Part shown: positions 22,534-49,558 of the stretch, one piece after another | Position numbering within the stretch: position 1 is the stretch's first letter | Layout: the number at the start of each line of letters is the position of its first letter | Source of the DNA: a virus | Taxonomy: Duplodnaviria > Caudoviricetes | Reading direction: 5' to 3' (one strand) | Length of the DNA: 55,532 nt | IMG/VR virus record: IMGVR_UViG_3300045738_001117 | Span: 1 to 55,532 of that record | Notes under the pieces: model-generated | Databases searched by the model: none | What the model saw: only the letters and a program-made list of their open reading frames with translations | Told to the model about the DNA's origin: nothing | Position numbers and translations under genes: made by a program

Positions 22534-25500
22534 ATGAGAAATTTAAGTAGGAGTGCTCCACTAACAGGTGGCGGCACAATATCAGGCGATTTAACTATAT
22601 CAGGTGACTTGTCGGTAGAAGGTGGAGGTTCTTTTACATATGATGAGATATTGACTGGTAATATGAATATAACTGGCGACCTTACTGTTTCTGGGGCAGA
22701 TTTAACTATTGTAGGTGCAACTTCAACAATTATAGCTGAGCAATCTGCTGGGGCTATAAGAGGAAATATTAAATTTATAACATCAGGTGGTGATGGTAGT
22801 ATTGCATTTGAAACAACAACTAATGGTGCTGGTGCAATAGCCGAAGCAATGAGGATTAATCACGATGGCAACGTCGGGATTGGAGCAACTCCAACAGTCG
22901 CTAAATTAGAAGTTCATGGTGGAACTCATAGTACCTCTTTATTAATAAAAGGTTCTGGTGGTGACACTGGTATAAAATTTGTAGATAGTGCTGGTAATAT
23001 AGATGGATATGTATATGCGTCTGGAGAAGATATAGGGCTTTTAGATATGGATGGTGATTGGGGGGTTAAAGTTGATAGTAATACTTCGGTAGATTTGCGT
23101 GTTGCTGGTTTAGTAAAAATGAAACTCGATGACAACTCCCGCATCTCGCTCTCGAATAATGATAGTGGAACTTCAAATACAATATTTGGAAAATTGGCTG
23201 GTGATGACTTGGCTGCTGGTGGTAATTATTCAGTCTTAATTGGAGAAAATGCTGGTCATACAAATAAATTAAGTGATAACAATATAGCTATCGGTTATGG
23301 TGCTATGGACTTGGCGTATATTGACGATACTGAAGATGCACTTGTCGCTGATAATATTTTTATTGGAAAAAATGCTGGTGGTGGAGATTGGGATTCTGCG
23401 GCTTCTCATTCAAATATAGCTATTGGTAGTGCTGCTCTTGCTGCGGCATTAGATGGGGCTTTAAATAATGTTGTTATCGGTAAGGAAGCGTCAGAGAGTC
23501 TAATTTCAGGTGATTATAATGTCGCAATAGGAAGTGCCTCTTTCAAGTCTTCACAAGGTGCAGATAAGTGTGTTTTTATTGGAGCGGATGCTGGTAAAGA
23601 CGGTAATGTTTCAAGTGATGGGCAAATAGGAATTGGGCATTCTGCATTGAAAAACCTCACATCTGGTGCTGGGAACGTGGCTGTGGGTTATCAAACTTTA
23701 GATGCCATTACTTCTGTTGGTTACTGCACAGCTATAGGACATCAAGCTCTATCTGCGGCTTGTGGAGCAGATAGCACTGCTGTTGGATACCAAGCATTAA
23801 TGGTTAATACTGCTGGAGATAATACGGCTATTGGTAAATCTGCTTTAGTTGATATGGTTGAAGGCTTTGACAATACTGCGGTAGGAAGCGGTGCAATGGG
23901 AGGAGCTTTAGATGCAACGGCAGATGCTTCAGAAGCAAATGTAGCTCTTGGTAAAAATGCTTTAGGAGGAGATTGGGTTACGGCTGTTTCAAACAACAAT
24001 ACTGCAATTGGTAGCTTTGCTATGGATGCCGCTATGGATGGGGCTGTGAATAACACTGCTGTTGGTCATAACTCATTAAGTGCATTAACTTCGGGCGACT
24101 CTAACACAGCTATCGGACATAATGCACTTCTTTCGTCTACTACAGCCATAGAGAATACAGCAATCGGGAATATAGCTGGTGATGCTTTAGTTGGTGGTGG
24201 TGGAAATACATTAGTGGGAGCAGGAACATTAACTACTTCAACGAGTGGTACTGATAATGTATGTATAGGGACAGATGCTGGAAGTGGTGCTGGAGATGTA
24301 GACGATACAGTAATTATTGGAAAAAGTGCCGCTGATGGAGCATTAACTTCTGACGCTGACGGTACAATTGCTATCGGAAAATCTGCTCTTGGAGCATTGA
24401 CATCTGGTGCAAAGAATGTCGCTATAGGCTATGATGCTCTTGGAGATTTAATTGAGGGAGACCATAATATAGCGATTGGTTATGATTCCATGAATGCTAT
24501 GGTAGGTGAAACTGGCGAAGGTAATGTTGGAAATAAAAATGTTGCTATAGGAACTGATGCAATGGGTTCTGTTAATGCGGGTGGACACGCAAGTTCTGCT
24601 TCAGATAGAAATATTGCAATCGGTTATGATGCTTTAAAGGGTGGGGCTTTGTCAGATGGTTCAGAAGGACATTTGGATGCCAATATTGCTATAGGAAATA
24701 ATGCCATGAACTCTACAGGTTCTAATTCTCAAACTGGTACAGTTGCTATCGGTGGTTCTGCACTCACAGCCCTCACATCTGGTGCTGGGAACGTGGCTAT
24801 AGGGTATACAGCAATGGATGAATTAACCACAGGAAATTATAATACAGCTTTGGGATATGCGGCACTTCATCAAATGGATTCTGGTGAGGAACACATGACT
24901 GCTGTTGGTTATCTGGCTGGTGATGCGGCTGATGGTAATACTACTTGTACGCTTATTGGTTCGCAAACAGACCCAAATACTACTGGTACGGACAATGAAA
25001 CAGTCATCGGATATAATGCAACTGGTGCTGGTGGTACTAACTCAGTAACACTTGGCAATGCTTCTGTTACCGCAGTGTATATGGCATCGGATAGTGGGGC
25101 TCATGTTTATGCTGGTGCTGGCACATTTGGTGGGAATACAAAAGTTACAACTTCAGATGCGGACACCACTTTTACGATAGAAACAACTTCAGGGTCAAGT
25201 ATCTTTCCAATTCTTGATTTTGTAAGTAGCCACTCCACTGTCGGTGCTAAAATTAGAAGCGATGGCGATGATGTTATAACTTTTGATAATTCACAAAATG
25301 TTGGGATTGGCGTATCACCGACTTATAGGTTAGATGTTCATGATGATACTACGGCTGGTGGCGGATATATGGCACGTTTTACCAATGATGGAGATAATGC
25401 AAATAGACTTGGTATTATCATTAAAGCTGGAGCTGACGATGCAAGTGGTACTACAAGGTATCTATTAGCACAGGATGGAGATGGGGGCACAGTTGGTTAT

Positions 25501-25905
25501 TTAGCTAATACATCTGGAACATTTGCATTAACGGATGGTTCTGATAGACGCATTAAAGACAATATACGAGATACTGAAATTGAAGGATTAAGTGCTGTCA
25601 ATTCAATGCAAGTCAGAGATTTTGAATGGAAGAAATCGGGAGATACTTGTATTGGCGGTCTTGTTGCACAGGAGTTAAAAGAAGTTTTCTCTCCAGCCGT
25701 AAGTGGCGAAGAGGATGATGTTGAAGAATATGAAGTTTCTCCATCAGTTGAAGCGTCAGAAGGCGTCGAAGCCGTTGATGCTGTAATGGGTGAAAGACCA
25801 AGGATGATGGGTGTGTCAAGAGATAGGCTTGTTCCAGTTTTGATAAAAGCAATACAAGAACTTTCAGCAAAAGTAGAAGCATTGAAAGAACAGTTAAAAG
25901 CATGA
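22534..25905 (+). CDS. Long tail fibre with YadA-head-like NxAIGxxAL repeats and S74 chaperone
   Basis: Dozens of ~14-aa N.AIG..A repeats; SDRRIKDNI, GLVAQEL, LVPVLIKAIQELS. Confidence 0.9.
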   Translation: MRNLSRSAPLTGGGTISGDLTISGDLSVEGGGSFTYDEILTGNMNITGDLTVSGADLTIVGATSTIIAEQSAGAIRGNIKFITSGGDGSIAFETTTNGAGAIAEAMRINHDGNVGIGATPTVAKLEVHGGTHSTSLLIKGSGGDTGIKFVDSAGNIDGYVYASGEDIGLLDMDGDWGVKVDSNTSVDLRVAGLVKMKLDDNSRISLSNNDSGTSNTIFGKLAGDDLAAGGNYSVLIGENAGHTNKLSDNNIAIGYGAMDLAYIDDTEDALVADNIFIGKNAGGGDWDSAASHSNIAIGSAALAAALDGALNNVVIGKEASESLISGDYNVAIGSASFKSSQGADKCVFIGADAGKDGNVSSDGQIGIGHSALKNLTSGAGNVAVGYQTLDAITSVGYCTAIGHQALSAACGADSTAVGYQALMVNTAGDNTAIGKSALVDMVEGFDNTAVGSGAMGGALDATADASEANVALGKNALGGDWVTAVSNNNTAIGSFAMDAAMDGAVNNTAVGHNSLSALTSGDSNTAIGHNALLSSTTAIENTAIGNIAGDALVGGGGNTLVGAGTLTTSTSGTDNVCIGTDAGSGAGDVDDTVIIGKSAADGALTSDADGTIAIGKSALGALTSGAKNVAIGYDALGDLIEGDHNIAIGYDSMNAMVGETGEGNVGNKNVAIGTDAMGSVNAGGHASSASDRNIAIGYDALKGGALSDGSEGHLDANIAIGNNAMNSTGSNSQTGTVAIGGSALTALTSGAGNVAIGYTAMDELTTGNYNTALGYAALHQMDSGEEHMTAVGYLAGDAADGNTTCTLIGSQTDPNTTGTDNETVIGYNATGAGGTNSVTLGNASVTAVYMASDSGAHVYAGAGTFGGNTKVTTSDADTTFTIETTSGSSIFPILDFVSSHSTVGAKIRSDGDDVITFDNSQNVGIGVSPTYRLDVHDDTTAGGGYMARFTNDGDNANRLGIIIKAGADDASGTTRYLLAQDGDGGTVGYLANTSGTFALTDGSDRRIKDNIRDTEIEGLSAVNSMQVRDFEWKKSGDTCIGGLVAQELKEVFSPAVSGEEDDVEEYEVSPSVEASEGVEAVDAVMGERPRMMGVSRDRLVPVLIKAIQELSAKVEALKEQLKA

Positions 25906-34629: not shown

Positions 34630-37600
34630 ATGCCCTATTTAGATGACTATAAAACAGTCCCAGGATTAGCAGCTTATATTCGTAGAGGACAAGCAGTGCT
34701 AGCTGAAGAAGAAGGAATAACTCCTTTTCTTTTACATCCAAGATTACCAGACGAAGAAATTATAAGTACATACTTTTCAGCACATCCCGACCAGATTAAG
34801 AATCTTGATGAGAGAATAGGGAAAGAAGTATTTCCTCGAATATTCATGCTCCCAGGAGAAAGGTTGTATGAAGAGTATGGGCAAAAGTATGCGGCTGGAC
34901 TTTTTGAAGTATGGGGCAAGGGTTTAGCTGAGCATGCAGTTAATATGGTTGCCTATGTCCCAGGTCTCCTTGGTATTCATGGACCAAGGAAGTGGGCTCA
35001 AGAACAATCTAGGGAGTTGCACAGCTCTCCATCAATGCAGGCATACGCCGCATGGAGAGAAGACGAACCTGTGACATGGGATAATTTTATGCATATGGAT
35101 ATAGCCTTGAGGGGTCTTGGTGAAATGTTGCCATCAGTAACAATCATGGCTGCGTCATATTTTGGGGCTCTTGGTGCCTCTTCAAAAATAGCAGGACTTT
35201 CTGGTTTAAGTCCTCAAGCTGCCGCATTTACTACAATGGCTATTCTAGAAGGCTCTGGAGAATATATAGAAGCTATGGATATTCTGGTAAATGAGATGGG
35301 GATAGATGAAGATGAAGCATGGAAGACAGCTGCTCCCGCATCTATTGCGTATGGAATGGCAGCTGGTTATCTTGAGACAACCCCATTCTTCCACTTTTTA
35401 AAGAAATGGTCCCCTGATGCTGAGAAACATCTTCTTGGAGGATTGGTTAGGAAGTTTGTTAAAGGAAGATTTACACTTCCAATGTCTAGAAGAGCAGCTA
35501 GTGCAATAGATATGTCAATTCTTGAAGCTTCTACAGAATGGAGCCAAGGAACACTGCAAAATATAATTAACAAAGAAATACTTTTAGGTTATGCCACCTC
35601 AAATGAAGAAGCATTTACAAGGTTATGGCAAGAGTTTTCAGATGACCAGGAGATTTGGGAGCAAACATACGCTGGTGCGGTTGGTGGTCTTGCATTTGGT
35701 CTAATTGGTGGTGTTGGAGCTAAAAGAGGTGAGGCTCGTGCAAGAAGAAGGGCTCGAAGGGAAATAGTTGAAGAAGCAGCTGAAGCACCGATAGAGGTAC
35801 CACTACAAACTGGGGTTATCCAAACTGGTGAAAGAAAAGGCGAGAGTGTAGATATTGTTGGTGAGACTAAGAGTGGTAAATCATGGGTAATACAGTTTGC
35901 TGATGGCGGCGTAACAAATAAACTTAAAACAAGTGTCCTTATGGAAGAACCCACTGTTGCTGCAGCTGCTCCTGCTGCGGTAACCTCTAGAGAGTATTTA
36001 GAATCATTAATTATAGGAAGGCCACCTGTTATTATTGAAGAACCCCCTGCTGGTGAAGAGTACGATCTACAAAGACATATTAGAAGCACACAAGATTACA
36101 GTTCATTTGAAGAAAGACAATTAGACTTTTTTAAATATACCGAAGATACTAGCATCATAGATAGGTTAAGTGAAGAAGATAGAGATGTTTTATTAGGTAA
36201 TATAGGCAAATTCTTTGAAGAGCGTGAAGTAGTAAAGGGTGAGATAACTGATGAAAGAACAAGAAGTCTCATTGATATGTATGCAAAAGGAGATATATCT
36301 CTTAAAGAAAAAGCTGAAAGAATAACACCTGAAGAAGTTCTAATAGAAAAAGTAGTTACACCAACAACTGCAGAGGCTGAAACCTTCCTAGAACAAGCTA
36401 TGATGGAGTCTGAGATTGCGGCTCAAGTTGAAGCGGCTGGCTATACTCCTGGTAGTGAAGGGTTTGCTGAAGAACTAGCAACAAGAGTTGGGTCTGTTTC
36501 TGACGAAGAAGCAATACAAGATATATGGAGGGAGTCAGTTATAGCTGGTGTTGGTCAGCTCACTGGAGTACCCACTAAAACAGAATCTAAGGTTGAAGAT
36601 TTAAAAGTAGAATCTGTTTCTGATGAAGAAGTATCTAAGGCAGGGAAGGGATATAGTAAGGGTGATATAGTAAGAGTAAAACACGTAAAAGGCAAACCAA
36701 TTTCCAAATTATCTGGTAGAAATTATCAGATTGTATCCCGTGGAAATAACTCAGCTACTATTGCAGATATCCAGACAGGGAAATTACATCAGCATATTCC
36801 ATATGACTTAATATATAGGGTAAAAGCAGAAGCTCCTAGCGAGAAAAACATTAGTAAAATGTACGCAAATGACCTCAATAAGATATTAAATTCATCTGGA
36901 ATTGTTGAGAGTGCAGCAGAAGGAAGTGTAGAAAAAGAGATATATGAGTCTTTGCCTAAGACTGGAAAGGGTAAAGTATCATTTTCAGGGGCTGATAAGA
37001 AGATAGTTGCTAAAGCTGTCAGTGACTTTGTAAACAGACGCAAGCCTACAACCGAAGCACCACCATCTGAGGCATCAATAAGACAAAAAGAAGAGTTTAA
37101 TAAAAAAGTTCCCGCTATGTCAGTTGCTCGTTTAAAAGATATTTTAAAAGAACACGGAATTGAAAAGGCTGATAAATTAAATAAAGCACAATTAGTTAAA
37201 AAAGTACAAGCTCTCCCACCTGCTCCTACAGTCGAAGAAATATTTGATTTTGGTGAAGAAGCCCCAGCTGTTGCTCCTCCAGCAAAAGCAGTCACTGCAA
37301 AAGATGTACATGATGCAGCAATAAAAGCTAACTTGGAGCCCGATAGTAAAGAATTTATGGATATGTCTAAAGAAGTTGTTGATGAAAGACATATTGATAA
37401 TATGTCTAACGATCAAAGGAAACGGCTTATAGACTTTATTAAGCAAGAAGAAGCACCTGCAGTTGAAGCTCCTGCAGTAATACCTGATGATGTAACTAAG
37501 TCAGGTATTGAAATATACAAAAAGTTTATTACACAGCCTGATAAGATATATCAAAATTTTAAGTATATTATTTTGAATACTGGGAGGAAGTCATTTGGTT

Positions 37601-40600
37601 GGTTTTCTGCTTGGTACGGCCCTATAGATTACACATATACTGGAATAACTCATAAAACACAAGAGATGCCTAAAGAATTTTCTGATCTTGCAAGACAGAT
37701 TGAAGAAGCTACAGGAGTTGAAAGTGGATATTATAACAGTGCTTTAGTAAACCTTTTCCCTAAGGGTAAAGGTATAAGTGCACATGCTGATGATGAGAAC
37801 ATATTTGTTCGTGAAAATAATACTATTGGTAAGGTAGCTACTGTTAGTTTAGGTGGTTCGACTCAGATAACAATATCAGGTGCAACTGATGATGTAATTA
37901 CAGTAGACGCTGGTGATGTTTATGTAATGCCTGGTCAAGAATTTCAATTAAAGCATAAGCATGCAGTGGGTCCATCTAATCGGGAACGAATCAGTTTAAC
38001 ATTTAGACATATACCTAAGATTAGACTTGCAGTAGAGCCAGAGCCAGTTGAAGTAAAGAAGCCAGAAAGAACAAAGAGAGAAGAAAAAGGCGATGCTTTA
38101 ACTAAAGATGAAGTGGCTTCGATTGTTAATGATATTATTAAAAAGAAAGAAGGTGGTGAATACAGTGTAGAGATTGAAGTTGGCAAAGCTAAGAGATATA
38201 CAATAGAAGGCAATAGAAAATCGTATAAGAAAATAGTAAAACGCATTACTGACAAGATGCCATTTATAAAACCATTTGGAGAAAATTTTGAAACAGACAT
38301 TGTTGACAGAAGATTAGTCTTACATGACGAGAGTACTGGCACTGAATATATAATTAACTTGCCAGAAGCTGATCCTTCTACAGGAAAGAGGGTACTAGGA
38401 AGAGCATGGGGAACCTTAGTTGAATGGTCTAAAACTGGAAATCTTGATACTCCACCGCATGAGTTTTTCCATGTTTACTTTAATCTAAGAGAAGGCAGCC
38501 CAGAAAACAAACTGGCTGTAAAGATATTTGAAGCAGCTGCATATAAATGGACTAAGAATGTAAGAAAGATTAAGAAGGAGCTTACCCCACATGAAGCTGT
38601 TGGTGAGTATTTAGCTTATCATGTTGGTAAATACTATGTAGAGAGATTAACAGGTAGCCTTGCTAATAGAATAGGTTCATGGATAAAAGTATTCTGGTCA
38701 AAGTTAAAAGCTATGTTTGCAAAGTCTAAGCTTACATCACAAGACATATTTAATATTATAGCTAGTGGATTTTATTCAAAAAAGAAAGTAGAGCCGACTA
38801 GTAGCGAGCTTGATGACTTCAATATATCTACACACAAAGACAAAACAAATGCCGAATATGATGTAGAAGACGAAGATGGAAGTGAAGACGATTATAATGT
38901 GTGGGAAAGTTTAAGCGACCCTGATATTTCAAGCATAAAGAGATTAGAGCTGACTACTAGAACTATATTTGGCAAAAATCTGCTCAGTAAAGAGCTTGTA
39001 AATATACTTATGAAAGCAAGGGAAATTGAGGTGCGGAGAGACCCCACTAAGAGCTTTTCTGAAGCACATAATGAGTTTAGAGATTATGTTATTAATGCAA
39101 ACTTTGTTGATGAGTTAGATATAATAAGAAGGGAAGAGTTTTTAAAAGGTGCATCAGAAATAGCTGGTGAAGGTCGCAGTGTTATAGGTCTCAAGCGAAG
39201 AGATTTAAATAATTTACGGTTCTTGTATCAGTTTGCAAGCAGTACTATGCCAAGAGAAGGCAAAATAGAATTATGGGTTGAGAAAGACAGGCACGGAGGA
39301 ATAACATCTATTAAGAGACTCCCACCAGATATTGATCCTATCACTGGGAAGGCCCAGTCTAAGTTTGTAAACATGAGTTTCATAGACGATCTCCCTGGCA
39401 ACGTAGGTGCAAAGACTATTTTGTTGAAGTTCAGTAATATTGTTAGGGGTTTATGGTCATGGAAAGACAATGATGGTGTATCTCATACAAACTATATACC
39501 AGCCGCAGTTGAACAGACTGTAGATAGAAATGCGTTTCTTGATAAAAGACTTGGTGCAATGGACATAGCTCTAATAGGTCCCAAAGGACTTGATAAGTCA
39601 GCGTTTTTAATGACATTTGTTACTGAAGAAGACAAAAAAGAAGGCAAGAGCTTAGACGAATATCTAAGCAGAGAAGTTAATAGTAAAAATATATCAGTTG
39701 AAGATAAAGATGCATTTCTTGCTTATGCAAAAGAGAATGAAGAGTATAATCCGAATATAAATAGCCAGATAGTTGCCAAGCATAAATGGTGGAAAGCAGT
39801 CTTTGGAGATAAGTATCTTATTTGGCAAAGAGAAACTGTGACTACCACCGAAGATATGCTTAATAGAACAAGAATAGCACTGTCTGAGGGTATTATAGTA
39901 AGAGGTCTTGGGGAAGTTTCAACATTTATTGTTGACCCTGATAAAGTTAGAATTGAAATTCCAAGCAGAAAAGTAAAAGGTGAGATTAACAGTTATGAGT
40001 TAGGAGAGAAGTGGGATGGTGGAATGTATTGGTCTTCTGAACTCTCTTACAGGATTCAGGATAAATTAGGTAAGAAGCCGCTTAGAGGCGAGTTCAGTCT
40101 TTCAGAAGTTAAGCCTGCAATTTGGCATAAGACTGACAATGGTTTGTTAGCAATGAAAATGAACTGGTTCTTTCCAAGACCTGGGACACGACTGGTAGAT
40201 AAAGAAACTGGTGAGGAAGTTCTAAGAGTAATAGGCGAGCCTGGTGATATAAGAATTGTGCTTCCAGATGGTACTCTTGTAGATACGTTTGCAACAACAT
40301 TAGAAACTAAGAAGATGTGGGGAGACTTTGAGGGGAAGACTAATGAGGTTATTAATATACCTGAAAAGTCAATAAGGATTATCCAGACAACTGATCAAAA
40401 AGGAAAAGATACAGTGGCATTTCCATTTGGAGCTGTTGACTTAATGCTGTCTAATGATTTGCAAGCTGATAAAGAATTTGTTAAGGGATACGATGTAGCA
40501 ACAAAAGAGATGTTTAGAAGGGCAAATTCTGTAATCAGTCTACTGATAAACGGAAGAGCGCATCCTCAGAACTTTAAAAGACTGTTAGAAGATATCGGTA

Positions 40601-42744
40601 TTCTTAAAGATGTTGTTTCTACTATTGAAGAAGAAGCTCTCAAAGAGACACACGATTTTGCTATATTCCATCCACATTTTATGCAGAGGTTTGAGTCATC
40701 TATATTTAATTATGCGTTAAAGTCAGCTGCGTTTAGAGGAAGAGTAAAAGGCAAAGGAACATATATTGCACTTGCCCCAGACTTTGAAAACGAAATAGAT
40801 GATGGCGAGATAGGTTTTGGTGATAAGAATATGGAAGTCTTAAAGAATGCTCAGAAGAGAGTATTCACAGACGAAGAACACGAAGAATTTAGAATACTTC
40901 TAAGAGATAGAGCTACAAGGCCACAGGCAATGGAAATGCTTAGTGCAGCCCTTGAAAAGAATGATATTTATGTTATTAGGACTAGGAATCCTATTACAGA
41001 CATAGCAGCTTTTGGAATAAAAAAAGTAAGTGATATTGTTGCAGGTGCTGGAAATGTCGCAATGTTATCGAATAATGATGTTTTCGCTGTTATTCAAGGT
41101 GACTTTGATGGTGACCATCTATCTATTGATTTTATAACAGCTGAAGAAGCAAAGGCTTACTTAGCTATGCAAAACAGCAAAGCATATAAGGCAAGGCAGA
41201 AGCCAGTTGTAATGTCTTGGTTTGAACATCCTGCGGGAGTTGGGTTGCTGTCTGATCTAAATGCTGTACATGAAATTGGAGAAAGAGTATCTTTAGCACA
41301 GTATGCACAGGGCGTTATGACAAACTTAAAAGCTGTTCGTGAGGTATTGGCATACAAAAAGATATCTATTAAGGGTGAAGATGTAGCTGGTAAATCGGTG
41401 GTGTACTCAGTTGTCAATCCTTATGATGAAGTTATAATGGACTATGCTCCACTTGATGTTAGTAACAAGGACTTAAAGAAGAAAGAAAGACAGGCAATAT
41501 ACGATGAAATTATTGAGGCTAAAGGTCAAGTTGTAGATGTCAATGAAAACAATGTTAAGTTTGATGACATAAGCACAGAAAATAAATACTTTCTTAAGAC
41601 TAACTCAGCACATGAAGTTTCTATACTTACTCAGGCAGCTGTGGACAACCCTAAAGAGTTTCTATTATACCACTGGAAGTATAACGGCTATCCATTCCTA
41701 TGGAGTAGGGTGATTAAAAGAGATGATGGGCAAAGAATGGATATTAGTTTTCCTGAAACATCTGAAGTAGCTAATGATGATTATATTAGAGATGTGTGGC
41801 ACTGGATGGGTCAGGTATTTAAATATTCAGCAGCAAGGCGGGGAAGAGATAGAAAATTGAGACCACTGTTGCCAGAAGAAGTAGTTGGCTTTTCTGAAGA
41901 TATCATGGGCATGGCAGAAGCTTCGGAGGAAGAACTAAAAAACTACGTTGTTAAGAGAATGAAGGTGGCTGCTTGGCTGCAGAAAAAAAGCGATAAGGCA
42001 TTTGTGCATCAACTGCAAAATGACCACAAAGTGGACAAAATAAATATAAAGAACAATATTACTCCAACTGAAAAAATATTTGCAATGTATGCAGAGATTT
42101 ATGAAGAGACAATAGATGATGAAGCAACACCAACTGATGATGGTGTCGTTACAAGGATTCCAAAAGATTTAAGAGATCATGCTCATCATCTTGGTATCAG
42201 GCTGTTAACAAAGAACTTACCTAATGTCTTCAAAAAAGCTGGAGTTAAGATAGTATCAAGAGAAGAAAATATTAAAGCTGCTAAAGACGGAATTAAATGG
42301 GCTGACAGAGTTGGCTCGGACTTCTTAAATATATTTGCTGACCAACAATATAAGGATAAAAGAGGCAAGGTTCACAAAAAAGGAGCTGGTTTCTCATATA
42401 GGGCAAATTATTCAGACGCCCTGTCAGCGTTTATAGTAGATAATTTAGATAGTTTTAGAAATCTCTCAAAGCCTGCGCAAATGTATGCTTCTTGGTACTA
42501 TCTAAGGGGAATTTCTAAGGTTGATTATAGAGTAAAGTCGGCAGTAAAAACCATATCTAAGGTTGAAGCATTATTGCCTATGGAGCTAATGGACAAAGAT
42601 GTATTTATTGAGTATCTTGACAGTTGGGGGATGGCAGTTCAGGATGAAGATGCTGTTGCTAGTATCGTTGTAGAAAAAGAAATTGAGGACGAAGGCGTTA
42701 CAGTTGCAAGAGTCTTTAACAAAGTACAAGAGGAAATTTGTTAA
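34630..42744 (+). CDS. Polyvalent virion protein: membrane-type N-terminus, HeH, AlkB dioxygenase, zincin and two-barrel RNA polymerase
   Basis: H1052-x-D1054...H1111...R1120-ISLTF-R1126; H1277EFFH; R2119NP...GD2158FDGD; located in the ejection-protein cluster. Confidence 0.85.
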   Translation: MPYLDDYKTVPGLAAYIRRGQAVLAEEEGITPFLLHPRLPDEEIISTYFSAHPDQIKNLDERIGKEVFPRIFMLPGERLYEEYGQKYAAGLFEVWGKGLAEHAVNMVAYVPGLLGIHGPRKWAQEQSRELHSSPSMQAYAAWREDEPVTWDNFMHMDIALRGLGEMLPSVTIMAASYFGALGASSKIAGLSGLSPQAAAFTTMAILEGSGEYIEAMDILVNEMGIDEDEAWKTAAPASIAYGMAAGYLETTPFFHFLKKWSPDAEKHLLGGLVRKFVKGRFTLPMSRRAASAIDMSILEASTEWSQGTLQNIINKEILLGYATSNEEAFTRLWQEFSDDQEIWEQTYAGAVGGLAFGLIGGVGAKRGEARARRRARREIVEEAAEAPIEVPLQTGVIQTGERKGESVDIVGETKSGKSWVIQFADGGVTNKLKTSVLMEEPTVAAAAPAAVTSREYLESLIIGRPPVIIEEPPAGEEYDLQRHIRSTQDYSSFEERQLDFFKYTEDTSIIDRLSEEDRDVLLGNIGKFFEEREVVKGEITDERTRSLIDMYAKGDISLKEKAERITPEEVLIEKVVTPTTAEAETFLEQAMMESEIAAQVEAAGYTPGSEGFAEELATRVGSVSDEEAIQDIWRESVIAGVGQLTGVPTKTESKVEDLKVESVSDEEVSKAGKGYSKGDIVRVKHVKGKPISKLSGRNYQIVSRGNNSATIADIQTGKLHQHIPYDLIYRVKAEAPSEKNISKMYANDLNKILNSSGIVESAAEGSVEKEIYESLPKTGKGKVSFSGADKKIVAKAVSDFVNRRKPTTEAPPSEASIRQKEEFNKKVPAMSVARLKDILKEHGIEKADKLNKAQLVKKVQALPPAPTVEEIFDFGEEAPAVAPPAKAVTAKDVHDAAIKANLEPDSKEFMDMSKEVVDERHIDNMSNDQRKRLIDFIKQEEAPAVEAPAVIPDDVTKSGIEIYKKFITQPDKIYQNFKYIILNTGRKSFGWFSAWYGPIDYTYTGITHKTQEMPKEFSDLARQIEEATGVESGYYNSALVNLFPKGKGISAHADDENIFVRENNTIGKVATVSLGGSTQITISGATDDVITVDAGDVYVMPGQEFQLKHKHAVGPSNRERISLTFRHIPKIRLAVEPEPVEVKKPERTKREEKGDALTKDEVASIVNDIIKKKEGGEYSVEIEVGKAKRYTIEGNRKSYKKIVKRITDKMPFIKPFGENFETDIVDRRLVLHDESTGTEYIINLPEADPSTGKRVLGRAWGTLVEWSKTGNLDTPPHEFFHVYFNLREGSPENKLAVKIFEAAAYKWTKNVRKIKKELTPHEAVGEYLAYHVGKYYVERLTGSLANRIGSWIKVFWSKLKAMFAKSKLTSQDIFNIIASGFYSKKKVEPTSSELDDFNISTHKDKTNAEYDVEDEDGSEDDYNVWESLSDPDISSIKRLELTTRTIFGKNLLSKELVNILMKAREIEVRRDPTKSFSEAHNEFRDYVINANFVDELDIIRREEFLKGASEIAGEGRSVIGLKRRDLNNLRFLYQFASSTMPREGKIELWVEKDRHGGITSIKRLPPDIDPITGKAQSKFVNMSFIDDLPGNVGAKTILLKFSNIVRGLWSWKDNDGVSHTNYIPAAVEQTVDRNAFLDKRLGAMDIALIGPKGLDKSAFLMTFVTEEDKKEGKSLDEYLSREVNSKNISVEDKDAFLAYAKENEEYNPNINSQIVAKHKWWKAVFGDKYLIWQRETVTTTEDMLNRTRIALSEGIIVRGLGEVSTFIVDPDKVRIEIPSRKVKGEINSYELGEKWDGGMYWSSELSYRIQDKLGKKPLRGEFSLSEVKPAIWHKTDNGLLAMKMNWFFPRPGTRLVDKETGEEVLRVIGEPGDIRIVLPDGTLVDTFATTLETKKMWGDFEGKTNEVINIPEKSIRIIQTTDQKGKDTVAFPFGAVDLMLSNDLQADKEFVKGYDVATKEMFRRANSVISLLINGRAHPQNFKRLLEDIGILKDVVSTIEEEALKETHDFAIFHPHFMQRFESSIFNYALKSAAFRGRVKGKGTYIALAPDFENEIDDGEIGFGDKNMEVLKNAQKRVFTDEEHEEFRILLRDRATRPQAMEMLSAALEKNDIYVIRTRNPITDIAAFGIKKVSDIVAGAGNVAMLSNNDVFAVIQGDFDGDHLSIDFITAEEAKAYLAMQNSKAYKARQKPVVMSWFEHPAGVGLLSDLNAVHEIGERVSLAQYAQGVMTNLKAVREVLAYKKISIKGEDVAGKSVVYSVVNPYDEVIMDYAPLDVSNKDLKKKERQAIYDEIIEAKGQVVDVNENNVKFDDISTENKYFLKTNSAHEVSILTQAAVDNPKEFLLYHWKYNGYPFLWSRVIKRDDGQRMDISFPETSEVANDDYIRDVWHWMGQVFKYSAARRGRDRKLRPLLPEEVVGFSEDIMGMAEASEEELKNYVVKRMKVAAWLQKKSDKAFVHQLQNDHKVDKINIKNNITPTEKIFAMYAEIYEETIDDEATPTDDGVVTRIPKDLRDHAHHLGIRLLTKNLPNVFKKAGVKIVSREENIKAAKDGIKWADRVGSDFLNIFADQQYKDKRGKVHKKGAGFSYRANYSDALSAFIVDNLDSFRNLSKPAQMYASWYYLRGISKVDYRVKSAVKTISKVEALLPMELMDKDVFIEYLDSWGMAVQDEDAVASIVVEKEIEDEGVTVARVFNKVQEEIC

Positions 42745-42745
42745 T

Positions 42746-45700
42746 ATGGCTAATATAAATTGCGAAGGCATAACAGCTGCAAGGCAAGCAAATAAAAAAC
42801 AGATAAGATACTACAGATCAAGAGTATCAGCAAAGATCGACCAGCTAATTGGGGCCCCAGCGCTTAGCCCAGCTATTAATTCTTTAAAGCCAAGAGATGC
42901 AAGCCTTGAGAGACAAAGATATAGAGCTCAAAAAAAGTTACACGACTATCTTGTGAGCACTCTCATGGAACTTGGTCAGATAAAAGGACACATTGTAGAA
43001 GATATCGATATTTTTGGTGACTTGTTACATATTCAATCGCATGAGAATAACGCAGCTCTGTATAATTTTTCAGAGACCCATTATGCAACTATTCTAGAGA
43101 GATTAGGCAAGACAAAACAGTGGTTGAGTAAAGTACCTGCTGAAAAACCTCTAACGCTATGGGAGCAGACGTTTGGAGAGATGTTGAGAATAATTCTTTC
43201 AAGAGACAAATTTGGAATTGCTGCAAAGTTCATGTTAAAGGTAAGAAGCTTTTCTGACAATAGCAGGTCTCTAGATATTGAATATATACGAACATTATCT
43301 ACAAAAGAGAAATCTATACACGATCTTATACGGGAAAAGGTTTCAAATAATATAAAAAACACAGATGATATTGGACACTTAATATTTGGTGGTCTTGAGG
43401 GATTTTTTACAAGAGACAAACGTGAAGTTGTTATTGTCGGAACCAGTATAGCCGATAATAGTTATTCTGTTTTTTATCTTGATAGCAATGGCAATAGAAT
43501 AGGCAAAACTCCAAAAGTTGTTAATAAATCAGAGATTTCTGTTATTGGTAAAAAAGATTTACCAGGCGAGAATAGGATAAGAAGTGCTATACAATTAGCT
43601 GCGCACAAATTCTATCGCAGGTTGCTAAATGGAAGAGTAAGGCATGTAGAGTTTGTGAGGACCCCCCATAATATTGAAGAAGAAGGGGATTTTAATGATG
43701 TGTGGAGGAAGTCACGTGATGGCATGTTTGTTGGCAGGGCTTTATCTGAAGCTGGAAAAGAAAAAGATACAAGAGAAAAACTAGGACTGCAGCCTGATGT
43801 TCATCCACAGCTACATACGGTTAAGTTTGGGGCGTGGGAGTTAACATATGTAATGGTGAAACAAGGTGAAGGGGTGCCAGGGCAAGATGAAGTATACAAA
43901 GCTTACTATACTAAAGCTAGAAGAGGTGACAAAGTAATAATGTTGTATAATCAAGGCGATGTTAAATTAACAGAATCAACAGCAAACCTCGGCCTTGGAA
44001 TTAGTAAAGAAATTCTATACAGAAAGGTGTTCTTAGAAGCAAACGATCATAAAATATTTCAAAAGCCGAGAGTTATTGGAGCAACTGTCGAAGGTGAGCC
44101 TATACTGTCGGAAGGTGGCAAGTTTCGTGCATACTATAATTTTTTTATAAATAAAGACTACGATAATATTCCTGAAGATATAGTTGATGAAATTCATGCT
44201 CAAATAACTGAGACGAGGGTTCTTAATAAGGATTTTTGGGAAAATCTTATAAAGAAAAGAATAGGGTATATGGAGCGTAGCATTAAAAAGGCGGTTGAAA
44301 GACCAGACGTAACAAGAGCTGAAGTGCTAGAGCTCGCTAGGAAAATAAGTGGTGTAGGAGGTGCAAGACACACAATAGATGTTCGTGGTGGTGAAGTAAC
44401 TATGTTAATGGGTGGACTGCAAAAACTAAAGCCAAAAAGGATAAACTTTGATCCTGTAAGATTTAAGGACGGTGTATATGAAGACACAGCAGACAGAGTA
44501 ATGGCTTCATACGAAAAAAAATTAATAAAGAACAACGAAAGCCTTGAAAAATGGGAAAGGGATTTGGCAAATAAAAAAGTTGCCGCAGATTTGTACAATA
44601 AGCATACTGCTGGAATACACAAAGAAAATGAGAGACTGGAAAATGATATTGAAGTATTAGAGAGAACTAGGGACATTATGCTTGATAAGGTAGTTGATGG
44701 CGAGGAAACTCCAGACCAAATGTCATATCTATTTAATCCTGTTCACTTGAGAACTACATCAGCAATGATGGACCATATGCAGAGGGAAGAGGATTTTGAA
44801 TCTCAAATAAAGTATTATGAAAGCACTGCAATGGCTCTAGTGATGGACGAGTTAAGAGCTGATTTGTTAGATGCTTTGATTGATATGAGAACTAATCCAT
44901 CTGTCCAAAATTTAATGATAGACTCAGTAAAAAAGGCGTTTGGTGATCCTACATACAGTGCTAAGTTTTTTGGGGCTGACATGGGATTTGAGAAACTAGC
45001 CAAGATTTTTAATAAACTTAATTTTGCTGGAAAAATGCGAGGAGAGGAAGACCCTTATCGTATATGGACGGCGGACAAAGTTCAGTTTTGGGGGATCATG
45101 CAAAATATGGGCTGGACTGCAAAGCACCTTGGTAAGTTCACCGCAACACAAAATAATTTACAGATACTTAACCCAATTATACTGCATGGATTGGGTACTT
45201 ATCGAACTGCAAAGGGGTTGCTTGACAATGATGTATGGAAAAAAAGAGTTGAAGATACTGGTGTCCTTGTTCTTCTAAATGCTCTTAATGAAATATTGCT
45301 GGGCAGGCGGGAAGGCGACCCGACGCTGAGAGACTATCCGCTTATAAAATATTCTAAAGCGGCAGCTACAATGGCGATGACAAAGAAAGCGTTTATGAAC
45401 ACACCTGACAAGGCAATTGATACGGTAATCATGAGGTCTGCTGCTCTTGGTGATTCAGCCGAAGAAGCACGCAGGCTAAAACAGTTGAAGAAAATATACT
45501 GGGAACTGGTAAATGGTGAGGATTTAGAAGGAAAGAACAAGTCACAGCAAATTCAAATTACTATGGCTAGACTTCAGAAACTTAAAAAGAAATGGTCTAA
45601 AAGGCATATGAGAGAAGCCGCAATGTTTACTTTATCGTGGTTCCCCTTTACTGGCGGCAAGGGGTTTTTCACATTTACAGGTGTTGAAGAAAGGCTAAGA

Positions 45701-46444
45701 GCAACTACTGCAATTATGGAGATGCTTGTAGCGAGAGACACAATGCTGGTTCCTATTGACGATGAAGCTGAATTTTATCGCCACCCGCTCGTTATCCAAA
45801 AGGCTAGATTTGGAGTATATTTAACTCAATTTGGGATGAGCCAGCAATATCTTGCTGGTTTTTTTGGTGGTTTTGGAAAATCTTTTGGACAATTTAAAAC
45901 ATATCCATACTTTGAAACACTGCAAGAGTTTAGATTAATGGAGAATTTCTTTAACTCTTTTGATGGTCAGTCTGCTATGGAAAACGTAGAAACACTTACA
46001 CGAAGAATAGGAGATGCAGCCTATGCAAGTTTTAAAAAGGAAAGTAGAAGTTCCAGCCAAAAAAAGCAAGATATACATTTGATGAGAATGTTTAGGCTTA
46101 TGATGATAAGAGGTGTAGCATCTTTCCTCTCTACTCTCCTTACTTTCAACCCGTATGCATGGGACCTGGTTAAGTCTATAAAGGGAATTGCATACGGAGG
46201 GAGCTGGAGTTTATTTTCATCTGCTTATTTTAGGGGAGCCGAGAGTCCAGCTCTTTCAATTTTAATAAGACTAATGATGCTTCCATTAATAATTGGTGCT
46301 GGTGACGATGACAAAGAAGAAAGAATACTAAGGGATTATTGGCGGCTCTTGCTTCCACCGCTAGTCACGTTCACGTGGGAAATTATTAATAAGATTAAAA
46401 AAGGTGAATCACCTGCCAGAGAGATTGTTGGTAATCCTTTCTAA
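42746..46444 (+). CDS. Large ejection protein with hydrophobic C-terminal channel-like region
   Basis: ATG 42746 after AGAGG; VEERLRATT...TQF...FGQFKTYP pattern; last gene of the block. Confidence 0.7.
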   Translation: MANINCEGITAARQANKKQIRYYRSRVSAKIDQLIGAPALSPAINSLKPRDASLERQRYRAQKKLHDYLVSTLMELGQIKGHIVEDIDIFGDLLHIQSHENNAALYNFSETHYATILERLGKTKQWLSKVPAEKPLTLWEQTFGEMLRIILSRDKFGIAAKFMLKVRSFSDNSRSLDIEYIRTLSTKEKSIHDLIREKVSNNIKNTDDIGHLIFGGLEGFFTRDKREVVIVGTSIADNSYSVFYLDSNGNRIGKTPKVVNKSEISVIGKKDLPGENRIRSAIQLAAHKFYRRLLNGRVRHVEFVRTPHNIEEEGDFNDVWRKSRDGMFVGRALSEAGKEKDTREKLGLQPDVHPQLHTVKFGAWELTYVMVKQGEGVPGQDEVYKAYYTKARRGDKVIMLYNQGDVKLTESTANLGLGISKEILYRKVFLEANDHKIFQKPRVIGATVEGEPILSEGGKFRAYYNFFINKDYDNIPEDIVDEIHAQITETRVLNKDFWENLIKKRIGYMERSIKKAVERPDVTRAEVLELARKISGVGGARHTIDVRGGEVTMLMGGLQKLKPKRINFDPVRFKDGVYEDTADRVMASYEKKLIKNNESLEKWERDLANKKVAADLYNKHTAGIHKENERLENDIEVLERTRDIMLDKVVDGEETPDQMSYLFNPVHLRTTSAMMDHMQREEDFESQIKYYESTAMALVMDELRADLLDALIDMRTNPSVQNLMIDSVKKAFGDPTYSAKFFGADMGFEKLAKIFNKLNFAGKMRGEEDPYRIWTADKVQFWGIMQNMGWTAKHLGKFTATQNNLQILNPIILHGLGTYRTAKGLLDNDVWKKRVEDTGVLVLLNALNEILLGRREGDPTLRDYPLIKYSKAAATMAMTKKAFMNTPDKAIDTVIMRSAALGDSAEEARRLKQLKKIYWELVNGEDLEGKNKSQQIQITMARLQKLKKKWSKRHMREAAMFTLSWFPFTGGKGFFTFTGVEERLRATTAIMEMLVARDTMLVPIDDEAEFYRHPLVIQKARFGVYLTQFGMSQQYLAGFFGGFGKSFGQFKTYPYFETLQEFRLMENFFNSFDGQSAMENVETLTRRIGDAAYASFKKESRSSSQKKQDIHLMRMFRLMMIRGVASFLSTLLTFNPYAWDLVKSIKGIAYGGSWSLFSSAYFRGAESPALSILIRLMMLPLIIGAGDDDKEERILRDYWRLLLPPLVTFTWEIINKIKKGESPAREIVGNPF

Positions 46445-47415: not shown

Positions 47416-48711
47416 TTAATCATTCTTATCGAAAAATCTACACTTATTCCCGTCAAAACCTACGGGATAATTACCTATTTGACCATATCTGCTCTTTGCG
47501 GCTACTATCATACATTCATTCTCTTCATATTCAAATCTATCTACCGCCCACCCATAGAATACGAATAGTGCGGTCTCTGCAGTTTGTTCTATTACTCCAC
47601 TTTCAGCATAATCACTCATCTTAGGAATAGGATTATCTCTCTTTTCTATTTCTCTATTCAACTGACTGATTAAGAACGCCGTACAGTTTGCACTTTTGCA
47701 TGCCCACTTGTAGTCATACATTATTTTCTCTATCTCAAATCTTCTTGCTTCTTTGCCTTCTACATTGATTAGCTGAATATAATCATCTATAACTACGTCT
47801 GGTCTATGCTTCATAACTTCTCTTATAGACTCATCTAAACCCCTAATATCATCGTACATCATAAGATTCTTGTATTTTTCCTTTATTCTATCCTTTACAG
47901 TATCGACTTCTGCGAGTTCTTTGATAGTTAGAAGGTGTTTTCTTACTCTATCGTATACTAAGACCTCACTTTCTATAACTAATAGCTTTTTGAGCATTTC
48001 TACGTTACTCATTTCCCTGTTAAATAGCATTACTTTATAGTTCTGCTCCATTAAGCTTTTAATAATATTGAGCATTAATGTTGTCTTTCCATGGCCTGGT
48101 CTTCCTCCAAGCACTGTAACTTCTTTCCTTGTCATTCCTCCTGCTGGTGCATCTAATGCAGGTATTCCAAATGGGATTATATTTGATCCTTCTTTTAGAG
48201 CTTCAGCTGTCTCCTCTATTATTACACTGATCTCACGCATCTTAGTAGGCTGTAGTTCTCTTAACTCTTCTACCAGTCTACTATGTTTCTCTAATACCTT
48301 TGAGGTTTGATTATAATCACTATAACTCATTCTTAGAATATTACTGGCACTTGTAGCACATTCTCTTTGAACATGCTTTTCCCATACTATCTTTGCATAA
48401 TGTTCTAAGTTACCATCAGTAACTGTGTCTGAAACTAATCCTGTTAAGTAATATCCGTATTCACCCTTCCTACCGTGTTTCTCGTTACATCTGTTGACAA
48501 CTGTTACCATTTCAATTGGTTCTCTTTCTTTATACATATTAGACATAACCTTCCAAACATTTTGAGGCTTATCATAATAAAATGCTTTATTCTTTCTTAT
48601 CCATGATGCAGCCCTATCAAAAGCATCAAGACCTCCATATAAAATACAACCTATTAACGCTTCTTCAGCTTCTTCGCTAGATGGAAGAGTCTCCATTATT
48701 TTGTCTATCAT
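47416..48711 (-). CDS. dnaB: DnaB-like replicative helicase
   Basis: EAEEALIG N-domain, GGRPGHGKT, DDYIQL, SQLNR, SGVIEQ, AKSRYG; AGGGG SD before ATG 48711. Confidence 0.93.
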   Translation of the reverse strand: MIDKIMETLPSSEEAEEALIGCILYGGLDAFDRAASWIRKNKAFYYDKPQNVWKVMSNMYKEREPIEMVTVVNRCNEKHGRKGEYGYYLTGLVSDTVTDGNLEHYAKIVWEKHVQRECATSASNILRMSYSDYNQTSKVLEKHSRLVEELRELQPTKMREISVIIEETAEALKEGSNIIPFGIPALDAPAGGMTRKEVTVLGGRPGHGKTTLMLNIIKSLMEQNYKVMLFNREMSNVEMLKKLLVIESEVLVYDRVRKHLLTIKELAEVDTVKDRIKEKYKNLMMYDDIRGLDESIREVMKHRPDVVIDDYIQLINVEGKEARRFEIEKIMYDYKWACKSANCTAFLISQLNREIEKRDNPIPKMSDYAESGVIEQTAETALFVFYGWAVDRFEYEENECMIVAAKSRYGQIGNYPVGFDGNKCRFFDKND

Positions 48712-49558
48712 TGTTGTCCCCTTTATCAAATATCTCTGTTTGAGATATTGGTTCATAGTTCATTATCACTAACTCGCTTATGGTTAATTTATTACTACCC
48801 CCTGCATATATTGTATTTACTGTCTTTATATTAAAGTCTTTATATAGTTCTCTTATTGTTTCTTTATCATCATAGCTCACCATAAACTTTCCACCATCAT
48901 TATTTATTTCCTTGCATTTCTCAGCAAGATCATTATGCATCTCAGTGGTAAAGTCATAGTAATAATAATCTCCTCGCTCACCTGCTACTACATATGGAGG
49001 GTCAAAGTACCACATATCGCCATCTTTTGGCTTATACCTTTTTATGAATGTTCTAAAGTCAAGATTTTCAATTAGAGAGCCATCTAAGTGTTCTCTTGAT
49101 TGTATTAGTTCTTCTTTAAGCAAGTGTTTCCAATCTTTCCTTGCTGTGTTTGGAGCCATATTTAAGTAGGGATTTTTATTAAATGAGTTACGAATCACAT
49201 AATAATATAAACATGCCCTCTCTATATCTGGAATAGTCATTTCTTTAGAACTCAATATTCTTTCCTGTGCTTCTTCAAATACTAATCTGGCTTTAGGCAT
49301 CCAGAATATAAACTCACACATCTCATCAAAATGATAAAGGACTACTGTATAGAGGTTTACTACGTCATTATCAATATCATTGAGAACACTTAGCTTTGCT
49401 TTCTTCTTTCTAAAGAACATGCTTAGACCACCAGCAAATACTTCTAGATACCTGTTATGTTTAGCAAGCATCGGGACCAGCTTTCTGCTGAGTTCAAACT
49501 TGCCTCCAAAGTATGGAATAACTACAGGGCAGTCTCTCCACACTAATGTCTCAATCAT
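48677..49558 (-). CDS. D12-class N6-adenine DNA methyltransferase (Dam-like)
   Basis: PYFGGK, EVFAGG, LNDID, DPPY, FMVSYDD. Confidence 0.93.
   Translation of the reverse strand: MIETLVWRDCPVVIPYFGGKFELSRKLVPMLAKHNRYLEVFAGGLSMFFRKKKAKLSVLNDIDNDVVNLYTVVLYHFDEMCEFIFWMPKARLVFEEAQERILSSKEMTIPDIERACLYYYVIRNSFNKNPYLNMAPNTARKDWKHLLKEELIQSREHLDGSLIENLDFRTFIKRYKPKDGDMWYFDPPYVVAGERGDYYYYDFTTEMHNDLAEKCKEINNDGGKFMVSYDDKETIRELYKDFNIKTVNTIYAGGSNKLTISELVIMNYEPISQTEIFDKGDNNDRQNNGDSSI

Follow-up and report, generated by a model that had tools for sequence, protein, structure and literature searches.

The AlkB domain described here, a 2-oxoglutarate (2OG)- and Fe(II)-dependent dioxygenase, was found in the DNA of an uncultured tailed phage, the whole IMG/VR virus record IMGVR_UViG_3300045738_001117 (55,532 bp, CheckV completeness estimate 99%; hereafter the window). 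Judged by its sequence and structural model, the domain looks real and catalytically complete. It is embedded in a giant protein of 2,704 amino acids (aa), within which, as comparison with related proteins indicates, it is an exchangeable insert between conserved scaffold parts. On the basis of gene position, cysteine avoidance, and homologous scaffolds elsewhere, the giant protein is probably delivered from the virion together with the DNA. We propose that the domain is an active demethylase cassette of a packaged polyvalent protein and repairs the entering DNA or early transcripts, a reading of sequence and model to which we give equal measures of credence and doubt.

The Pfam family 2OG-FeII_Oxy_2 (PF13532) matched residues 998–1126 of the giant protein (E 4.4e-12, 47.1 bits versus a cut-off of 31.2), and a six-frame search of the record with PF13532 gave 52.2 bits (E 2.5e-15). 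Residues N1041, H1052, D1054, H1111, R1120, and R1126 were invariant in 34 of 34 aligned sequences and aligned to N120, H131, D133, H187, R204, and R210 of E. coli AlkB (reference sequence from NC_000913), which are the iron and 2OG ligands of that enzyme; Y1001 aligned with its Y76. A preliminary description of this DNA, made from the letters alone, had reported an intact AlkB at 37530..38020 with all Fe and 2OG ligands present, and our results agree with it on both counts. The peptide strings that it listed (AWYGPIDYTYTG, YNSALVNLF, ISAHADDE, TVSLGG, YVMP..FQLKHKHAV, and RISLTFR) are all in frame and map to residues ~994–1126, equal to nt ~37610–38007, of the 34630–42741 translation. The interval does contain the domain and lies inside the single open frame of 2,704 codons on the plus strand, but the modelled folded part begins ~40 nt earlier and spans about 37489–38016, and the placement of the domain inside a 2,704-aa open reading frame (ORF) had gone unmentioned.

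The AlphaFold2 model of residues 951–1137 (mean predicted local distance difference test score, pLDDT, 95.5; predicted template modelling score, pTM, 0.90) displayed the double-stranded beta-helix with the AlkB-type N-terminal extension and gave at least 450 PDB matches at E ≤ 0.001, with ALKBH3, ALKBH2, and E. coli AlkB (EcAlkB) first. The nearest solved fold was ALKBH3 bound to single-stranded DNA (E 4e-12, template modelling score 0.70–0.78). ALKBH3 was also the best PDB match by sequence alone (E 1.9e-4), and a PDB search with a profile of four full-length proteins returned weak ALKBH3 matches only. The window domain shares the fold, the Fe(II) triad, and the 2OG-binding Arg/Asn with human ALKBH3, ALKBH2, and EcAlkB, whereas its sequence is only 17–24% identical to theirs, its His3-to-Arg loop has 9 residues versus 17 in E. 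coli-type AlkB, and, unlike all three, it is free of cysteine and embedded in a 2,704-aa protein. The NCBIfam AlkB equivalogs TIGR00568 and NF011930 scored far under their cut-offs (32.5 versus 231.05 bits and 24.4 versus 267 bits, respectively), and the domain is therefore a member of the AlkB family, not an orthologue of the E. coli type.

The protein family as defined here has ten members: the window protein (P0001), P0002, the giant ORFs of loci L002–L007 (the L006 protein being identical to P0015), P0021, and P0028. P0002 was the one full-length relative found by a whole-protein word-index search, the six loci came from a pattern scan of IMG/VR, and P0021 and P0028 were joined to the family via a hidden Markov model of the C-terminal module. 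The giant ORFs of L002–L007 are 2,168–3,229 aa long, that of L003 being cut by the contig end. Common to the family are an N-terminal region (~41–554), a region with a PHE[YF]xH-type motif, and a C-terminal module of ~1,050 residues. AlkB is present in five of the ten members (window, L003, L006, P0021, and P0028) and was not detected by Pfam in L002, L004, L005, L007, and P0002. The closest relative overall, L002, is 31% identical over residues 1184–2704, has no AlkB, and carries unrelated sequence between the conserved parts. It is this presence in half of the members, between conserved scaffolding, that identifies the domain as an exchangeable cassette.

When the 187-residue AlkB domain was searched exhaustively with HMMER against 1.84 billion representative proteins, 384 matches were obtained at E ≤ 1e-3 (60 at ≤ 1e-10 and 17 at ≤ 1e-30), of which the best 150 are described here. 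Among the 149 of these besides the window, 31 non-plant-virus proteins have at least 1,000 aa, 22 of them at least 2,000 aa, and proteins of at least 1,000 aa account for 13 of the best 30 matches. Many shorter matches carry the AlkB domain at their very end and are therefore probably fragments. The ten AlkB-bearing giants that we looked up were all metagenomic, and one had been auto-named AlkB. Sequence comparison points to at least three unrelated kinds of giant scaffold carrying related AlkB cassettes, namely the window family and the virion RNA polymerases (vRNAPs) of N4 type and of crAss type: P0018 (E 6.5e-39) and P0005 (E 5.8e-32) are homologues of N4 gp50, P0067 is a homologue of phi14:2 gp66 (E 5.9e-109), and gp66-like RIP…DFDID/DYDID motifs also occur in the AlkB-bearing giants P0082 and P0096.

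Partner domains were sought with Pfam in 28 of the 31 giants, the other three exceeding 5,000 aa. Superfamily 1 (SF1) helicase domains (AAA_30/PIF1/UvrD_C_2) were found in eight, SLOG/YpsA in four, DUF7831 in four, NADAR (above cut-off) in three, and N4_RNAP_helical in one. The helicase follows directly after AlkB in L003 (L003:9857-14827) and L006 (L006:9707-19174). We observed AlkB repeatedly beside an SF1 (RecD/Pif1-like) helicase, also in P0022, P0029, P0039, P0043, P0079, P0080, and P0102, and the pairing recalls both the ALKBH3–ASCC3 pair (PMC8616854) and the AlkB/helicase order of plant-virus replicases.

The giant protein resembles the polyvalent proteins of Iyer et al. (2017, PMC5512222), which include N4 gp50, are of the same giant multidomain type, and are encoded among late/virion genes; exchangeable enzymatic modules and predicted entry with the DNA are likewise in common, and the HExxH region is a candidate for their zincin-like hub. 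A single ORF of the window, encoded downstream of the terminase, portal, capsid, and tail genes, combines AlkB with an HExxH region and a conserved C-terminal module. The main text of PMC5512222 contains no mention of AlkB, 2OGFeDO, dioxygenase, demethylase, or NADAR, and its supplements may list such domains. No paper on AlkB inside virion polymerases or polyvalent proteins was found in the literature outside supplements and non-open journals. The recurrence of the cassette on at least three unrelated scaffolds, often beside an SF1 helicase, indicates that polyvalent proteins may carry more adduct erasers than have been described.

When the cysteines were counted, the giant protein had one in 2,704 residues versus 58 in 9,829 (0.59%) for 21 other window ORFs, and the single one is its last residue. 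The family members and other AlkB-bearing giants that were counted contained 0–2 cysteines and, where any, one within the last five residues. A terminal cysteine also stands at the ends of the giant ORFs of L002, L004, L005, L006, and L007 and of P0004, P0021, P0028, and P0067. Of the two known vRNAPs, phi14:2 gp66 has two cysteines in 2,180 residues and ends in …KQECK, C2179 being invariant in an alignment of the gp66 family (A7), and N4 gp50 has none in 3,500. The conservation of the terminal residue suggests a specific role, for example in anchoring, in a disulfide, or in a metal site.

The AlkB domain itself follows the same composition. In the groups defined by the trees described below, it was cysteine-free in 48 of the 61 rows of the phage clade, all cysteine-bearing rows coming from proteins of less than 1,000 aa, and in nine of nine rows of a second clade, in which giants stand beside shorter proteins that are probably fragments. 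The corresponding counts were five of 47 for stand-alone AlkBs, one of 29 for bacterial genomes, and none of six for the plant-virus clade. The counts show the AlkB domain to be adapted to its carrier. The avoidance of cysteine fits a protein that travels through virion, tail, and envelope. The giant ORF and a neighbouring ORF of 1,253 aa form the distal end of the terminase–portal–capsid–tail block, and N4 gp50 and phi14:2 gp66 stand at the same distal position of their virion blocks.

Two further parts of the giant protein bear on its nature. The zincin-like region was recognized by one aligned PHE[YF]xH-type motif (HETIH in P0002) present in eight of eight full-length members; L005 and L007 contain a second, unaligned HExxH. 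Iyer et al. assigned a region of N4 gp50 to zincin-like metallopeptidases (PMC5512222), and hhalign matched the window region to it weakly (E 0.0017, prob 15%). The region has no Pfam match, and the assignment consists of the motif and this weak hhalign match.

The C-terminal module has as its invariants an R-x-P, a GDxDGD 36–38 residues on, and an [AS]VD[ND]xK ~175 residues further. Exactly one DxDGD (DFDGD, DWDGD, DYDGD, DHDGD, or DGDGD), with RxP upstream, was found in eight of eight full-length members, and the RxP…DFDGD signature is typical of the barrel of beta-prime type in cellular RNA polymerases. The crAss-like two-barrel vRNAP gp66 of Cellulophaga phage phi14:2 and its homologues contain R-I-P, [SA]D[FY]DID, and FVDNAK in the same order, so that the two proteins share the series R-x-P, [GS]D-x-D-[GI]-D, [AF]VDNxK, with 39 residues from RxP to Asp in the window protein versus 38–39 in gp66. 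Both are also encoded last or nearly last in their virion blocks, and each has a cysteine within the last five residues of a nearly cysteine-free chain, whereas the window genome is 55 kb versus 100 kb for the phi14:2 type and the proteins have no significant sequence, profile, or fold match. The window protein has no similarity to the T7-like N4 polymerase and has DxDGD-type motifs instead. From the motifs we lean towards a two-barrel RNA polymerase as the identity of this module.

Several results weigh against this identity. The hhalign alignments of the C-terminal module were non-significant against gp66 (prob 0.09, E 0.6), against the gp66-family alignment (prob 0.05, E 0.81), and in a trimmed run (prob 0.27, E 0.22); the two best of them nevertheless land exactly on the motifs named above. 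There was no tblastn match to the module at E ≤ 1 in 50,697 phage records, and no polymerase was found for the giant protein by phmmer or profile search of the PDB. The PHROG 'RNA polymerase beta subunit' matched one of six members weakly (E 0.0053). The AlphaFold model of the module was poor (pLDDT 50.2, motif region below 50), and Foldseek with this poor model returned no matches at E ≤ 0.001. Since the profile and fold tests gave no confirmation, the label of RNA polymerase was not adopted for the giant protein.

The function that we propose would run as follows. The giant polyvalent protein would be packaged in the virion and enter the cell with the DNA, after which AlkB would use host Fe(II), 2OG, and O2 to strip lesions of the N1-methyladenine (m1A) and N3-methylcytosine (m3C) type from single-stranded phage DNA or early transcripts. 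The single-stranded stretches would be opened by the linked polymerase-like module or, in relatives, by a helicase. Lesions of the m1A/m3C type build up in nucleic acid that lies unrepaired in a particle, and they block polymerases. Because repair is impossible inside the particle, AlkB would act on entry and make the incoming genome readable for the first round of transcription, probably carried out by the C-terminal, polymerase-like part of the giant protein itself. The same argument from damage in the particle has been made for plant viruses (PMC2553587). Repair of this kind, or the erasure of imposed marks, had also been suggested in the preliminary description and may reasonably be entertained. 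The giant-protein context carries most of the functional inference, and the substrate and timing of the predicted activity could as readily differ from this scheme as match it. If the giant protein is injected, the result would be a base-demethylating enzyme delivered with the DNA, a pre-loaded tool of repair or anti-modification for the first minutes of infection.

Some points tell against this proposal. The phage is known from metagenomes only, and both packaging and activity are predicted. The window's own giant protein contains no helicase. The chemistry of 2OG dioxygenases requires O2, and the domain could not work in a strictly anaerobic host. Finally, the NADAR and SLOG partner domains of the relatives fit counter-defence as well as repair.

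In a counter-defence role, the delivered AlkB would remove adducts placed on phage DNA or RNA by a host defence, not spontaneous damage. NADAR domains act against DarT by reversing ADP-ribosylation of DNA, which offers an analogy. Against such a role, no bacterial defence enzyme is known to create substrates of the AlkB type. The cassette is exchangeable (five of ten members), as expected of modules in an arms race, and it travels in other giants with NADAR (3/28 above cut-off), SLOG/YpsA (4/28), and DUF7831 (4/28), although these co-occurrence counts are low. The polyvalent-protein concept predicts injected anti-defence enzymes (PMC5512222), and Van den Born et al. allowed for viral AlkBs directed against an undiscovered host defence (PMC2553587). 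On balance we regard counter-defence as unlikely.

It is also conceivable, if very improbable, that the enzyme is directed at the host, demethylating its RNA (m1A, m3C, or N1-methylguanine of tRNA/rRNA) or DNA, and so reprogrammes translation or strips protective methylation. The closest solved fold, ALKBH3, acts on single-stranded DNA and RNA according to the titles of its PDB entries, and for stand-alone phage AlkBs which are sporadic, Iyer et al. (2021) proposed that they reset the methylation of phage or host DNA (PMC7824862). However, one or a few delivered molecules would face the RNA or DNA of a whole cell, the adjacency of SF1 helicases in relatives points to tracking along DNA instead of bulk RNA editing, and the Pfam scan of the giant protein revealed no RNA- or tRNA-binding domain.

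A giant protein that is not packaged, i.e. an intracellular multi-enzyme made late, whose AlkB would repair replicating or newly packaged DNA, would be in keeping with the status of its polymerase and peptidase identities, which are unconfirmed candidates. Against this stand the gene position, size, near-absence of cysteine, terminal cysteine, and motif order, all of which match proven virion proteins elsewhere: phi14:2 g066 is annotated from tandem mass spectrometry of virions, N4 gp50 is annotated as virion RNA polymerase, and P23-45 gp96 is a vRNAP (PMC10770324). We consider the unpackaged alternative to have little in its favour.

As the preliminary description had stated, the phage also encodes an adenine methyltransferase, of the D12 class (Dam-like), and the description had offered as its second option that AlkB erases host- or self-imposed methyl marks, the latter taken here as the phage's own Dam-type N6-adenine marks. 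The enzyme was present in three of three AlkB-bearing records searched (window, G303, and G306), and the title of PDB entry 4nid refers to E. coli AlkB bound to DNA with N6-methyladenine (m6A). Over six records, D12 methyltransferases were found in four, those of the window, L002, L003, and L006, the L004 record being a 41% fragment. The L002 record (96% complete) has the methyltransferase without AlkB, and in the L005 record (97% complete) neither was found. With only six records and this pattern in L002 and L005, no coupling of AlkB to a Dam-like methyltransferase is shown, and the proposed tie was dropped as unsupported. ALKBH3, ALKBH2, and EcAlkB are repair enzymes for m1A and m3C, not dedicated m6A demethylases, and the eraser of own marks is scarcely credible.

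The preliminary description had further likened the domain to the AlkBs of plant RNA viruses. Among the best 150 matches of the AlkB search were four carlavirus-type replicases, two of them from Red clover carlavirus A and Garlic yellow mosaic-associated virus, with the domain order Vmethyltransf, AlkB, Peptidase_C23, helicase, RdRP_2. Trees were built from 134 full-domain rows together with E. coli and Propionivibrio AlkB as outgroup. Before this, 17 of 151 scored rows that covered less than 70% of the domain profile had been dropped; P0002, having no AlkB, was not among the rows. The Propionivibrio soli sequence, an E. coli-type AlkB, is the one locus returned by a scan of genome contigs with a single protein as query and served as outgroup only.

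In the IQ-TREE LG+G4 tree of the 136 rows, the plant-virus clade (six rows; ultrafast bootstrap, UFBoot, 100; Shimodaira–Hasegawa-like approximate likelihood ratio test, SH-aLRT, 99) was sister to a 61-row phage clade that contains the window (99/85), and the union of the two (67 rows) had UFBoot 98 and SH-aLRT 88. The same 67-row set was recovered in a quick tree under LG+C20 with posterior mean site frequencies (SH-aLRT 93) and again, with an SH-aLRT of only 64, in a tree of 163 rows to which 27 AlkBs from 301 Pseudomonadota genomes had been added. Thus the sister position was seen in three of three maximum-likelihood trees, with the window outside the plant-virus clade proper, the E. coli-type AlkBs as outgroup, and no grouping of the phage clade with ordinary stand-alone bacterial AlkBs.

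The grouping of phage and plant-virus rows is matched by two indel characters. The spacing from His3 to Arg is 8–10 residues in 58 of 61 phage-clade rows and six of six plant-virus rows, compared with 11–12 in the main stand-alone clade (44 of 47 rows) and in the mixed remainder (19 of 20 rows), and 17 in the two outgroup rows. The spacing from Asn to His1 is 11 throughout the plant-virus rows (six of six) and the outgroup (both rows) and in 48 of the 61 rows of the phage clade, and it is 12 in 44 of 47 stand-alone rows. A structure comparison with BFVD placed polyproteins of RNA viruses (Vitivirus, GLRaV-3, Grapevine virus T, and others) ahead of the AlkBs of giant viruses and the stand-alone AlkBs of phages. 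Outside phages, the nearest relatives of the window domain may be the AlkB modules of plant RNA viruses.

An exclusive link between the two is a different matter. In the approximately unbiased (AU) test, a tree joining the plant-virus clade to the 47-row stand-alone clade was not rejected (difference in log-likelihood 15.3, p 0.369), and the best scores of the plant-virus domains outside their own group were mixed, with phage and stand-alone rows alike at 50–65 bits. Since the tree sample consists of the best matches of a phage query, it may lack the sequences that are truly closest to the plant-virus domains. A reciprocal search from the carlavirus AlkB region among shorter proteins gave 173 candidates, none at E ≤ 0.001, and was uninformative. 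The sister relation as a proven one was dropped on the AU result and the mixed reciprocal scores; it is a promising lead, and an exclusive common ancestor of plant-virus AlkBs and phage AlkB cassettes is a tentative suggestion that we think more doubtful than probable. The likeness noted in the preliminary description therefore holds insofar as the plant-virus AlkBs are among the nearest relatives and the phage clade stands apart from stand-alone bacterial AlkBs; it does not extend to exclusivity, an alternative placement of the plant-virus clade being unrejected.

In both groups AlkB is built as an internal module into a giant protein of the virus, in plant RNA viruses the replicase (Betaflexiviridae, Closteroviridae, and others; PMC2553587), and both have the short His3-to-Arg and the 11-residue Asn-to-His1 spacing. 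The identity between plant-virus AlkBs and the window domain is 33–38%. The six plant-virus rows (P0074, P0091, P0131, P0142, P0108, and P0145) differ from every other group by Gln instead of Asn at the Asn120 position (6/6), and from the phage clade by lacking its 4-residue insertion after HxD(D)E; they are cysteine-rich (3.6%), unlike the phage cassettes, and their carrier is an RNA replicase, whereas that of the window is a giant protein of a DNA phage, probably in the virion. One of the rows, P0108 (568 aa, 'hypothetical protein, partial [Providencia sp.]', on a contig of 1,706 bp), lies inside the plant-virus clade with 52% identity to a carlavirus replicase domain and is probably, by its sequence, a plant-virus sequence in a bacterial assembly.

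The 2008 study of plant-virus AlkBs found that they repair methylated single-stranded phage genomes with a preference for RNA and left their origin open (PMC2553587), and the phage clade is a concrete candidate for their sister group. If the ancestry were exclusive, plant-virus AlkB would derive from a phage-borne lineage of modules in giant proteins and not from an ordinary cellular repair gene, and that lineage would have been pre-adapted as an internal domain acting on single-stranded nucleic acid. Phage-encoded and sporadic AlkB-like 2OGFeDO genes are also known from a few jumbo phages, and a role in resetting methyl marks has been suggested for them (Iyer et al. 2021, PMC7824862). Those are separate genes, whereas the window domain forms part of a giant protein that is probably injected, and its cysteines have been lost. 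New here are a separate uncultured lineage of phages of roughly 48–58 kb, the internal and not C-terminal position of the cassette, the cysteine-free signature of the AlkB domain itself, and a tested, unproven sister relation to plant-virus AlkBs. As to bacterial AlkBs, 108 of the 301 Pseudomonadota genomes had a PF13532 match, in score bands of ~173–211, 100–145, and 50–86 bits, and the AlkBs of the middle band are those that fall together with the phage domain's stand-alone relatives.

Features of the window, with positions in nucleotides of the record and residues of the encoded protein.
Feature	Position	Strand	Residues and detail	Basis
Giant ORF P0001	34630..42744	+	2,704 aa; AlkB host protein; penultimate gene of same-strand virion block	Open-frame translation
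Conserved N-terminal region	34750..36291	+	~41–554; Gly/Ala-rich, mildly hydrophobic; common to L002, L003, L004, L006, P0002, P0021	BLASTP; hydropathy
Weak SAP/HeH-like helix-extended-helix motif	37114..37209	+	829–860; upstream of AlkB	Pfam HeH E 0.002, SAP E 0.073, both below cut-off
AlkB (2OG/Fe(II) dioxygenase) domain	37489..38016	+	~954–1129; Ala/Pro/Glu-rich linkers either side	Pfam, six-frame search, alignment, AlphaFold2 model, structure comparison
Catalytic set, within 37750..38007	37750-37752; 37783-37785; 37789-37791	+	N1041; H1052; D1054	Alignment
Catalytic set, within 37750..38007	37960-37962; 37987-37989; 38005-38007	+	H1111; R1120; R1126	Alignment
Zincin-like region	38077..38889	+	1150–1420; P-H1277-E1278-x-x-H1281 and invariant downstream E1326	Motif, alignment A6
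Conserved C-terminal module, candidate two-barrel RNA polymerase core	39547..42741	+	1640–2704	Invariants of alignment A2
Motifs of C-terminal module	41101-41115 (G-D2158-F-D2160-G-D2162)	+	R2119-x-P2121; G-D2158-F-D2160-G-D2162; AAVDNPK, 2336–2342	Alignment A2
Sole cysteine	42739..42741	+	C2704, last residue	Invariant C1065 of alignment A2
Second large ORF	42683..46444	+	1,253 aa from TTG start; downstream of giant ORF, overlap with its end ~60 nt	
Small terminase	4231-5046	+		PHROG and Pfam scans
Large terminase	7616-9181	+		PHROG and Pfam scans
Portal	9754-11988	+		PHROG and Pfam scans
SU10-type major capsid protein	12964-14523	+		Pfam SU10_MCP E 7e-15
Tail fibre	20464-21774	+		PHROG/Pfam scans
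Tail spike	22534-25905	+		PHROG/Pfam scans
D12-class (Dam-like) N6-adenine DNA methyltransferase	48677..49558	-	Context, no demonstrated tie to AlkB	Pfam D12 class E 1.9e-26

From 46706 on the strand switches, and the genes there include a resolvase, a DnaB-like helicase, the D12 adenine methyltransferase, an Erf-like protein, and a Cas4-like nuclease. Judged by its sequences, the phage belongs to a lineage from which no member has been cultured. Its large terminase shares no more than 25% identity with that of any isolate, the nearest being N4-like Vibrio and Pseudomonas phages and Roseobacter podoviruses, and in the 50,697 phage records tblastn gave no match to the capsid protein at 1e-3 or to the whole giant protein at 1e-5. 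The related records are of 48–58 kb, with an estimated completeness of 96–100%.

Apart from AlkB, Pfam gave only weak HeH/SAP hints on the giant protein, and it matched no PHROG family. The giant ORFs of L005 and L007 have a Rho_N domain at the matching place (residues ~661–694), so that a helix pair of the nucleic-acid-binding SAP/HeH/Rho_N type precedes the slot of the cassette within the variable middle part of these proteins. The 1,253-aa ORF matched no Pfam, PHROG, or NCBIfam family and, like the giant protein, has a single cysteine in its 1,253 residues. An ORF of 1,184–1,277 aa directly follows the giant ORF in all five related loci that reach far enough (L002, L004, L005, L006, and L007).

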